A stretch of DNA of 64,000 bases from assembly GCF_056712565.1 (NCBI RefSeq), contig NZ_CM160072.1; one strand, written 5' to 3'. This document shows positions 33,501-36,500 of the stretch, piece by piece. Every line of letters starts with the position of its first letter. Within the stretch, counting starts at the first letter, position 1. The position numbers are program-made.

Positions 33501-36500
33501 ATCACTGCTGTTACCGAGAGTTGCGCCATAATCGGCGGCATTCAGCTTATGAAATGTCAGGTCATTCCCGTTAACATCCAGAACCCCCCCCCGGTAGCCC
33601 CAGGATATATTGTCCGGATTAACCTGCTGGTTGTCTGCCAGCACGACTGTCGGGCGGCCGCTGGCAATATTCACGCTACTGAATGCCTGAACGTGTCCTG
33701 AACTGTCAGCCTGCTGATTGAGGACAACGGTCCCATCCCCGACTTTCAGGCCGCCCTCATTAACACCGGTTCCCTGTACAACCAGGGTTCCTTCGCCGAT
33801 TTTATGCAGGTTGTCACCTTTCACACCATTAACCTGCCAGTTTACGGAGGCATCCTTGTCCACAATAATACCGGCCCCGGTCCAGGTACTTCCGTTTGAA
33901 GTGGTGACAGTGTAGTCATCAGTAAATGTCAGTGAACCGGCACCCTGCGTGACAGAGTTTTCCAGGTCAATCTGACCATTATGTCCCAGGAATGTCAGAT
34001 TTTTACCTGCGTTCAGGTCAGAACCTTTTTGCCCGTGCATGGCATATTCATCGGAACCCTGTTTCAGAGAGCCAGTGCCGGTGCTGCTGTCAAATTTCCA
34101 TTGCAGGGGGGCGCCGGATGAGGCATTAAAAAAGACGGGAGCGTCATTATCCTCTGAATAGATCTGTGAGAGAAAACTCTGAGGAATAAGAGAATATATC
34201 AAATTGGTCCCCCCTCCTACTCCCGAGTAAACACCGACCAGTTCCCACTGCCCTTTGGCCGTATTCCAGCCAAATAATGGAGAACCACTGTCGCCGGCCT
34301 CTCCAAAAGAGGGCAGGATGCTATGATCATGTATGTTGCCCCCCATATACAGCTGAATGCCGTCTGAGCCGTGATAAAAGAATGATGTCGGGAGTATTCC
34401 TCCTGTCAGATAACCATACCCACCTGTTACCCAATGTCGCTTACCCTGACTATCCTGAATATACTGACTTCCCGAACCAGCCCTGTAGAATGCCGAGTAT
34501 TTTGAAGGGTTCAATATATCAGCTGTTGATGAGCTGGTTACGGTAGCCGGAGCAACCTCAGTTACGAGCTTATCAAGTCTTGGTGTGTGGAGATCAGATG
34601 AACTGTGTTCATTACGATCCACAATATGGTAACTGTTCTGACCATCACCGAAGCTGACGCTCTGATATCCTTTATTATGTTTTACACTGGCTATATATTG
34701 CGGGTTAATTAATGTTGCAACGCCGGGATTTGAGCTTACATTCACACTGCTAAAATCAACCATGGGCGCTTTATCAAGATGTCCTACTAATTCCCCTTTA
34801 TTATTAAAAATAGGAATGTTTGTTGCGCCAGCCTGAAACTGCCCTTTGTTTTCTGCAAAGTCGCGGTATGTCTGGTAAGGATTGTTGCCACCAACCGTTG
34901 ATGCACCAGCAACGGTTGGGAGTAATGCAGATAGTGCCAGAGAGGTAAGTACTGAAAGTCTTTTTCCTCTGCGGGTACTCCCTTTACATACCCTTCGGGC
35001 TAGTTCAGAGACAACCTTTACTGTGTTAGTAATATAACAATATTTTAGAGCGTATATTTTATTCATAGTAAATGATTCCGGAACGTATATTCCAAAGTTA
35101 CATTAATAACCATAGACAATTTCAAACGAAAGCATTGTTGAATTGCGCGCTAATTATTAATTAGCTATATAATTATAAATGTGACATATGTCACATTTAT
35201 TTTTGCTTAAAACTACAATATTTTGTAGTTGCACGCATTCTTTGTCTGTGGTTTTCATTGGTGGTAATGAAAATGTTGTTTGCTTTTTCTCAGGTGTTTT
35301 GACTTATGACTTAAAGTCATAAAATATGCGACGCTAATACAACTACAGAAAAATGGTATATATGGATATCGACGATATTTGTTGATTTTTATTTTAAATT
35401 GCGTGGCGGTTCAGAGCGGATATATATATCACCATACCATCATCTGTTTTTCTGAAGTTCAGATTAGTTTTAACACACTGTTTTCCATCTTCGTTGATTA
35501 CAACAGTCTTTTTAATGTATTTACGAATGGCATCATTCGACGTTCTAACGGATTTAGTCGATGGTGGGGTAATTAATAAAACATTTGCTGTAATCAAAAA
35601 CGGTAATGTCTTCAATTGATAGAAGTTTCTGGTAATCTACTGGTATTTAAGGTTTTCCATGGCTACCGTTACTGTTCATCGTCCGCGCTGTAATTCCGAT
35701 AAAGTTTATCGACATGGTCGTAGTTGTTCCCAGCATGAGCGTTTCCGTTGTCGTTCATGTAAACGTGTTTTCCAGCTCACTTACTCTTATGAAGCCAGAA
35801 AACCCGGCTTTAAGGAGCTGATCGTTGAAATGGCGCATAATGGCACAGGGGCCGTGATATCGCCAGAATACTGAAAATCAGCATCAATACCGTCATACGG
35901 ACATTAAAAAGCTCTCGCCCCAGCGGATAACATCTGCGTCAGTCAGCTCACGCTGATGTTGCCCTTATCTGTGAACTTGATGAGCTGTGGAGCTTCGTTG
36001 GCAACAAGGCGCAACAACACTGGCTCTGGTATGCGTAGAACACTAAAACTGGCGGTGTGTTGGCTTACACTTTCGGGCCACGGAATGATGAGGCCTGTCG
36101 GGAATTGTTAGCCCTGTTGACTCCGTTCTGTATCGGCATGGTGGCCGCGATGACTGGGGCAGCTACGCCAGAGAAGTGCCGAAGGAGAAATACCTGACCG
36201 GCAAAATCTTCACGCAACGTATTGAACGTAACAACCTGACCCTCCGCACCCGCATCAAGCGGCTGGTAAGTAAAACAATCTGCTTCTCGCGTTCCGTTGA
36301 AATCCACGAAAAAGTCATCGGTTCCTTCATTGAAAAGCACATGTTCTACTGATTGGAAGCACTACCCAACGTTCAACTTATCATCATAAGTATAAAAATC
36401 ACAAAATGGGAGGTAAGAGTCTTTACCTGGATTGTCTCGAAATGCAAAGTGTGCTTGCTTTACAACTAAATCTGGGGGTATCTAATGATTGCGTAATAGT

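Follow-up and report, generated by a model that had tools for sequence, protein, structure and literature searches.

An inactivated IS1N-like insertion sequence at the right-hand edge of the vat cassette and its probable part in the assembly of the vat island

The VAT-PAI of APEC and UPEC reportedly goes back to an original description by Parreira and Gyles in 2003. In the literature that we consulted, vat and vatX are placed on a thrW island between proA and yagU, and the islands described include the VAT-PAI of Ec222, which has 33 ORFs, and the 20-kb PAI-APECO1-thrW (PMC6956023, PMC7545054, PMC6592367, and PMC8148099). No discussion of an insertion sequence (IS) or of the junction structure of the island is contained in these reviews (PMC6956023, PMC7545054, PMC6592367, and PMC8148099), to which the comparison was confined.

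Here, we analyzed a stretch of 64,000 nucleotides (contig NZ_CM160072.1 of NCBI RefSeq assembly GCF_056712565.1), which is referred to below as the window. Its island resembles VAT-PAI and PAI-thrW in occupying the thrW locus between proA and yagU and in its content of vat and vatX. Between vat and yagU, at positions 35602–36366 on the plus strand, lies a complete but inactivated insertion sequence of 765 bp, whose assignment to the IS1 family, and within it to the IS1N-like branch, is based on end-to-end alignment with relatives, on Pfam and NCBIfam profiles, and on the pseudogene annotation in RefSeq. The element as such is already known from the IS1 pseudogene annotation in public RefSeq genomes, and it is of little importance by itself, dead IS copies being common in pathogenicity islands. 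The added interest lies in its termini, which appear to record the splicing of the vat cassette into a degraded thrW island. Very probably, this is a dead IS1N-like copy that is fixed in the vat island as a passenger and that, while active, would have made the joint between the vat cassette and the old island.

Extent, ends, and family membership

A preliminary description of this DNA had recognized a decayed IS1-family element at 35602–36366 between vat and yagU, with ends that resemble the inverted repeats of IS1. Pfam, NCBIfam, and homologous sequences agree on this identification, and the coordinates proved exact, since the alignments with relatives extend over bases 1–765 and target duplications abut the same termini. 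The copies that can be aligned over this full length are found in Shigella/EIEC pINV, in an E. coli contig, and in Enterobacter mori, where they lie in unrelated contexts. In two related copies, the termini GGTAATG...CACTACC are directly bordered by target duplications of 8 or 9 bp: the direct repeat flanking the pINV copy is CGGCAAAA (8 bp), and that flanking the intact IS1N-like pO177B1 copy is ACGGGGTTC (9 bp).

The left inverted repeat (IRL; 35602–35624, plus strand, 23 nt, GGTAATGTCTTCAATTGATAGAA) is unique in the window, and the relatives begin at the same first base. It is identical at 16 of 23 positions to the right inverted repeat (IRR; 36344–36366, 23 nt, read on the minus strand as GGTAGTGCTTCCAATCAGTAGAA), and the two thus form an imperfect pair of IS1-like ends. 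When up to three mismatches were allowed, each of the terminal 21-mers occurred once in the 64-kb window (chance expectation, 0). Neither this search nor tblastn with the classical and the repaired transposase revealed any further IS1 copy or IS1 end in the window.

Similarity to the IS1 family, on which the preliminary description had made its reading depend, is clear. After the frames had been joined by eye, the InsA part matches Pfam Zn_ribbon_InsA (PF03811, 2e-18) and HTH_Tnp_IS1 (PF12759, 3e-26), the InsB part matches DDE_Tnp_IS1 (PF03400, 4e-65) over profile positions 1–131 of 131, and NCBIfam transpos_IS1 matches the InsA and InsB halves alike. A total of 2537 homologues were obtained at E ≤ 1e-20, and every named one among them belongs to the IS1 family. 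The corresponding RefSeq labels read 'IS1-like element transposase, frameshifted' and 'IS1 family transposase, frameshifted; internal stop'.

The architecture of the element is also that of the family. Its length is 765 bp in the native state and 766 bp with the three indels reverted, compared with about 770 bp for IS1-family members, and its imperfect terminal inverted repeats of about 23 bp begin with GGT. On the repaired frame (the native one being broken), the zinc ribbon of InsA is N-terminal and its HTH C-terminal, and InsB, which is read in the −1 frame with respect to insA, has a DDE domain of the IS1 type, with an A-run slip site between the two genes. The motifs LDE.W, SDDW, and QRIERNN, which we take to hold the catalytic residues (D, D, and E), are kept in the InsB part. 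It could be argued from the distance to classical IS1 (only about 50% identity at the nucleotide level and 39% at the amino acid level) that the element does not belong to the IS1 family at all and that it shows a chance resemblance or represents a neighboring family such as IS1595. However, the full-profile DDE_Tnp_IS1 match, both InsA domains, transpos_IS1 in both halves, the uniformly IS1-family names among the homologues, and the IS1-like layout of 765 bp with two frames (0/−1) and an A run leave this idea a negligible probability, and it was rejected.

Inactivation and present-day state

The insA-like pseudogene (zinc ribbon plus HTH; 35659–35930, plus strand) starts with the ATG at 35659 and has its repaired-frame stop at 35928–35930. 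The insB-like (DDE) pseudogene occupies 35906–36352 on the same strand and ends with its natural TGA stop at 36350–36352. Alignment with relatives points to the A5G-type sequence TTAAAAAGC at 35904–35912 (plus strand), which, by analogy with IS1, is presumed to work as the −1 slip site. The A5G site is shared with the pINV copies and with an intact-looking E. coli relative (locus L020); therefore, it is probably an original feature of the subgroup and not a lesion.

Four lesions were called by alignment with eight relatives and then with the three closest ones, and all of them are private to this element in those alignments. The first, a 1-bp deletion in a G run at about 35849/35850, throws InsA out of frame within the HTH and leaves a 71-aa ORF (35659–35874) that carries the InsA-type zinc ribbon. 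The other three are located in insB: an additional A at 35945, a change of TAC to a TAG stop at 36036–36038, and a 1-bp deletion at about 36146/36147. In the native sequence, the remainder of InsA and the InsB-like sequence are scattered over three frames. Reversion of the four lesions yields an element of 766 bp with an InsA of 90 aa and, if the frame slips by −1 at TTAAAAAGC, an InsAB' of 231 aa. Compared with the three nearest relatives and their consensus, the element has about 24 private substitutions and three indels. The breaks in the InsA-like zinc-finger ORF and in the InsB segments, which had been noticed in the preliminary description, are accounted for by three 1-bp frameshifts and one TAG. 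With these three frameshifts and the nonsense codon, transposase can no longer be made, and the ability to transpose is predicted to be lost as well.

Sequencing error was considered as the source of the lesions and rejected, since the same indels and stop are present in independent genomes. All three indels and the TAG codon occur in CFT073 and ATCC 25922, and substitutions alone separate these alleles from the window. The lesions that the window has in common with the CFT073 and ATCC 25922 alleles indicate that the element was dead before these alleles diverged. Its decay continued after the divergence of the island alleles; the first zinc ligand, Cys8, is encoded by TGT in CFT073 and ATCC 25922 and is replaced by Arg (CGT, 35680–35682) in the window.

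The IS lies upstream of vat, at a distance of 536 bp from the start codon, and is directed away from this gene. Most likely, the element is inert today. We also considered whether it might still be functional, either because the 71-aa InsA-like ORF serves as a DNA-binding regulator or because the IS acts on vat as a promoter or H-NS boundary, and we regard this as highly improbable. The IS is kept in every vat island found, but such retention is expected of any neutral passenger on a vertically inherited island. Most of the zinc ribbon is kept in the truncated ORF; however, HTH_Tnp_IS1 covers residues 42–87, and the HTH is cut by the frameshift at about residue 64. In addition, the Cys8 zinc ligand, kept in CFT073, is gone in the lineage of the window, which argues that the InsA-like ORF is not under purifying selection. 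With regard to vat expression, the IS has a G+C content of 48% and interrupts DNA of 31% G+C upstream of vat, and repression of vat by H-NS has been published (PMC6956023). Against an effect of the IS on this gene stand its distance of 536 bp from the vat ATG, its orientation facing away, and the fact that conservation with the tsh-like promoter region stops at about 35232.

Distribution, flanks, and origin of the joint

Among 5426 complete E. coli genomes, 539 were found to contain the element at an identity of at least 99%, the median number of places per genome being one; the carriers include UTI89, APEC O1, S88, IHE3034, CFT073, and ATCC 25922. Its position is between vat and yagU in all genomes examined in this respect (UTI89, S88, APEC O1, CFT073, and ATCC 25922), and the window is 100% identical to APEC O1, UTI89, and S88 across the IS. 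The 5' end of vat and its upstream DNA were found in 539 genomes at an identity of at least 99%, and in the 537 genomes with full coverage they are continuous to the IS junction. With 250 bp of each flank joined as a query for the empty site, the two halves were contiguous in none of the 5426 E. coli genomes. Because the IS is always contiguous with the vat upstream DNA and no joint free of the IS was found, it is a fixed component of the vat islands examined. As a fixed signature of all of them, it could be used for typing the island and for tracing its descent.

On its left side, the IS adjoins the vat upstream region (35067–35601, minus strand, 31% G+C), and this flank reads ...AATCAAAAAC up to the IS. 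An independent vatX-vat cassette with 94% identity is carried by the IncF plasmid LR890578.1. The homology spans positions 30180–35600 of the window and ends at the left end of the IS, with unrelated plasmid DNA beyond; on LR890578.1, 124 bp past the junction have no other match. A 73-aa minus-strand ORF at 35394–35615, which starts inside the IS end, was rejected as a gene, as it is unannotated and has a 98-bp indel in the plasmid homologue.

On the right side, a 101-bp internal gene fragment (36367–36467, minus strand, approximately codons 66–98) has 95% identity to a gene of E. coli 4/2-1, and the similarity begins at the first base past the IS, 36367. The parent gene, with a product of 375 aa, is uninterrupted in E. 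coli 4/2-1, where it is the neighbor of a SIR2 gene. Both genes lie at the far end of a thrW-integrated island of 12 kb, which also carries a P4-type tyrosine integrase and a D5-type primase, and the SIR2 protein of 4/2-1 matches the PADLOC candidate defence system PDC-S25 (6.5e-140). When tblastn was used to look for further parts of the right-flank gene on the other side of the IS, all matches had E values of about 1 or higher.

Remnants of such an old island occur in the window in an order that is colinear with the 4/2-1 island. They begin with the thrW 3' repeat (29340–29359) and an N-terminal (Arm-binding) piece of the integrase that the old island carried (together 29340–29851, plus strand, 79% identity), followed by the 3' end of the SIR2 gene (29844–29988, 88% identity to the 4/2-1 island), the stub of the neighboring gene, and the remnant of the right end of the island (36473 to about 36555–36572, about 70% identical to the end of the 4/2-1 island). 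The slot of the SIR2 gene and its neighbor in a 4/2-1-type island is occupied by a replacement segment of 6.4 kb (29989–36366), which consists of about 190 bp at its left edge, then vatX, vat, 536 bp of vat upstream DNA, and the IS. The right edge of this segment is the right end of the IS; its left edge (29988/29989) is no IS end. The breakpoints show how the island is put together, namely as a vatX-vat cassette in the SIR2-type cargo slot of an old thrW island, with the IS as the right seam.

The preliminary description had taken the element as the right boundary of the vat island, which holds for the cassette and not for the island as a whole. Between the IS and the backbone that is shared with vat-negative ST131 lie about 190 bp of older island DNA (36367–36555); the cassette thus has its right edge at the IS, whereas the outer edge of the island is reached only about 190 bp farther to the right. 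From 36556 through yagU, the DNA is common to vat-negative ST131 with 99.5% identity, and in ST131 a perfect thrW 3' repeat stands immediately before the point that matches 36556. In the window, a degenerate copy of this repeat is located just before 36556; no true thrW 3' repeat was found beside the IS, the sole true one being that at 29340–29359. An integrase remnant at 36569–36712 (minus strand) belongs to the backbone shared with vat-negative B2 strains and lies outside the vat island.

A separate phage-like element of 12.7 kb is located between thrW and the 20-bp repeat at 29340–29359, in tandem ahead of the vat island. This element is missing from S88.

A target-site duplication flanking 35602 and 36366, which the preliminary description had proposed as a check, was not seen at the IS when the flanks (left, ATCAAAAAC; right, CAACGTTCA) were compared by eye in the 8-bp, 9-bp, and offset registers. 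Such a duplication is a property of the insertion event and not of family membership, and its absence can be read as a sign of rearrangement at the IS ends. Two relatives with clear ends (loci L019 and L020) likewise have no obvious duplications, which makes the missing duplication weak evidence when taken alone. Combined with the breaks of homology at both IS ends, it supports a role of the IS in the assembly or truncation of the island, at which the preliminary description had guessed. Judged from these alignments, the IS sits, to the base, between two unrelated DNAs: the vat cassette on the left and the gene stub of the old island on the right.

IS1 is known to promote cointegrate formation and adjacent deletions. 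The IS, then still active, would have formed the right-hand joint of the vat cassette, and two routes can be envisaged. On one route, a donor replicon with vat would have become joined to the resident island through replicative transposition, and the second IS copy and the remaining donor DNA would have been lost later; in the 64-kb window, no further IS1 end or copy was found by which a cointegrate or composite structure could be proven. On the other, the IS would have inserted into the resident gene, and an adjacent deletion would then have extended leftwards from its left end. Either route would predict an IS without duplication, unrelated flanks, and breakpoints exactly at the termini, as observed. 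A recombination independent of the IS that ended by chance at the IS terminus is less probable.

A different explanation is a simple late insertion at a cassette/stub joint that had been made before, with a duplication that has since decayed, in which case the IS would have had no role in building the island. The element is old (about 24 private substitutions and three indels), so decay of the flanks is conceivable, and a clear duplication is also missing at L019 and L020. However, the 9-bp flanks share essentially nothing, while the flanking DNA is well conserved (95% from 36367); a base-exact strike on an existing joint, on both sides, is improbable; and the joint without the IS was found in 0 of 5426 genomes. 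Given the conserved flanks without duplication and the lack of an IS-free joint, a late insertion is unlikely, and we prefer formation of the joint by the then active IS. More tentatively, it is conceivable, though rather doubtful, that an IS1N-like element took vatX-vat out of a plasmid-type donor and, by replicon fusion, brought it into the cargo slot of the satellite-like thrW island, thereby displacing the SIR2-type candidate defence system. If this is true, the dead IS would be the scar left by the event that founded the ExPEC vat island, and the locus would illustrate in detail how a virulence gene can take over a defence hotspot.

Comparison with described IS1 copies

Although the kinship with IS1 that the preliminary description had recognized is correct at the family level, the element is not near classical IS1 and belongs to the IS1N-like branch, with IS1N itself excluded by the usual thresholds. 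The repaired InsAB' has amino acid identities of 90% to an Enterobacter mori transposase, 87% to the E. coli transposase of locus L020 (a locus with 91% nucleotide identity and both frames open), 81% to proteins named IS1N by NCBI, 77% to ISEc30, and 39% to classical IS1. At the nucleotide level, the element is 94.9–95.2% identical to the pINV copies across all 765 bp, 83% to a decayed plasmid copy, 75% to the intact pO177B1 copy, and about 50% to classical IS1. Assignment to the same isoform takes at least about 90% nucleotide or 95% amino acid identity to the reference IS1N, and the element falls below this level with 81% at the amino acid level and about 75% at the nucleotide level, the latter measured against the nearest intact IS1N-like copy examined. 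The names given by NCBI reach just 'IS1 family', and the proteins that are named IS1N stand at the 81% mentioned above.

Classical IS1 (IS1A/IS1R type, such as locus L007 of ST131) shares with the element the Pfam and NCBIfam family, the gene layout, and the production of InsAB' via a −1 frameshift at an A run. It differs in sequence, with 39% amino acid and about 50% nucleotide identity, and in its slip site, which is A6C and not A5G. IS1N (iso-IS1n) of Shigella dysenteriae is more similar in organization: its length of about 766–768 bp, its repeats beginning with GGT, the arrangement of insA and insB in the 0/−1 frames, and an InsAB' of 231 aa all correspond to what is found here. Nevertheless, the element has only about 75% nucleotide identity to the IS1N-like pO177B1 copy, which is well under the usual level for the same IS, its slip site is A5G in place of A6C, and the copy in the window is dead. 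The nearest relatives are the copies on Shigella/EIEC pINV, located beside IS630 and ipaH7.8, which have identical termini and the same A5G site. Unlike the copy in the window, the pINV copy is flanked by an 8-bp target duplication and has none of the four lesions described above; it has a lesion of its own, a 1-bp deletion in the QRIERNN motif.

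Remains of an older island around vat

The vat island is the emptied shell of an integrative island resembling that of E. coli 4/2-1 (locus L015, NZ_CP023834.1 296873-308700). The 4/2-1 island contains genes for an integrase, an Icd-like protein, an Ash-like protein and a D5-type primase, and its cargo consists of a SIR2 gene (PADLOC PDC-S25) and a neighbouring gene. In the window, remains of the older island are confined to 29340-29988, which keeps the N-terminal part of the integrase and the 3' end of the SIR2 gene, and 36367-36572, which keeps a 101-bp piece of the neighbouring gene and the end of the island.

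Just left of yagU lie what remains of an integrase C-terminus, interrupted by a stop codon (36569-36712), and a degenerate thrW-type repeat (36540-36555). Because both are also present in vat-negative B2 strains such as ST131, they are relics of a still older integration at the same site.

The vat island is preceded in tandem by a 12.7-kb phage-like element (16614-29359), bounded by thrW on one side and on the other by a 20-bp repeat of the 3' end of thrW (29340-29359). Its genes include those for a major capsid protein, a baseplate protein and a tyrosine integrase, the last at 27919-29253 on the minus strand. It is absent from S88; an element of the same kind is present in ST131, where it abuts the backbone directly.

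The vat gene and a plasmid-borne cassette

The vat gene (30936-35066) is intact in the window and encodes 1376 aa, whereas the UTI89 copy is frameshifted according to RefSeq; therefore, the window is of the APEC O1 type rather than the UTI89 type at vat. On the IncF plasmid LR890578.1 (locus L016, 12030-17584), vatX and vat also occur as a cassette, which shows 94% identity to its chromosomal counterpart and is followed by msrPQ-like and two-component genes. Thus, vat is not exclusively chromosomal.

Relatives of the IS1-like element

The nearest relatives of the dead IS1-like element (95% nucleotide identity) are copies on the invasion plasmids (pINV), which occur at 6-7 places per plasmid. 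Those adjoining IS630 and ipaH7.8 were compared in EIEC, S. flexneri and S. sonnei (L002, L008 and L009). At this locus, the one examined among the 6-7 places, InsA is intact and InsB has a 1-bp deletion in its QRIERNN motif, with an additional 8-bp tandem duplication in the S. sonnei copy. In some E. coli chromosomes, a further member of this IS subgroup, with 88% nucleotide identity, lies immediately downstream of sitABCD, next to sitD (locus L004, NZ_CP097170.1); it is truncated at its 5' end and frameshifted.

Another decayed IS1 copy, 83% related (locus L003, pL3452210II_1 59554-60320), contains seven consecutive A residues (A7) at the slip site, the presumed -1 frameshift site joining insA to insB; this run places the two genes in a single frame. 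In classical IS1 studies, a one-frame arrangement of insA and insB was built artificially to force transposase production, and the L003 copy has the same arrangement as those constructs.
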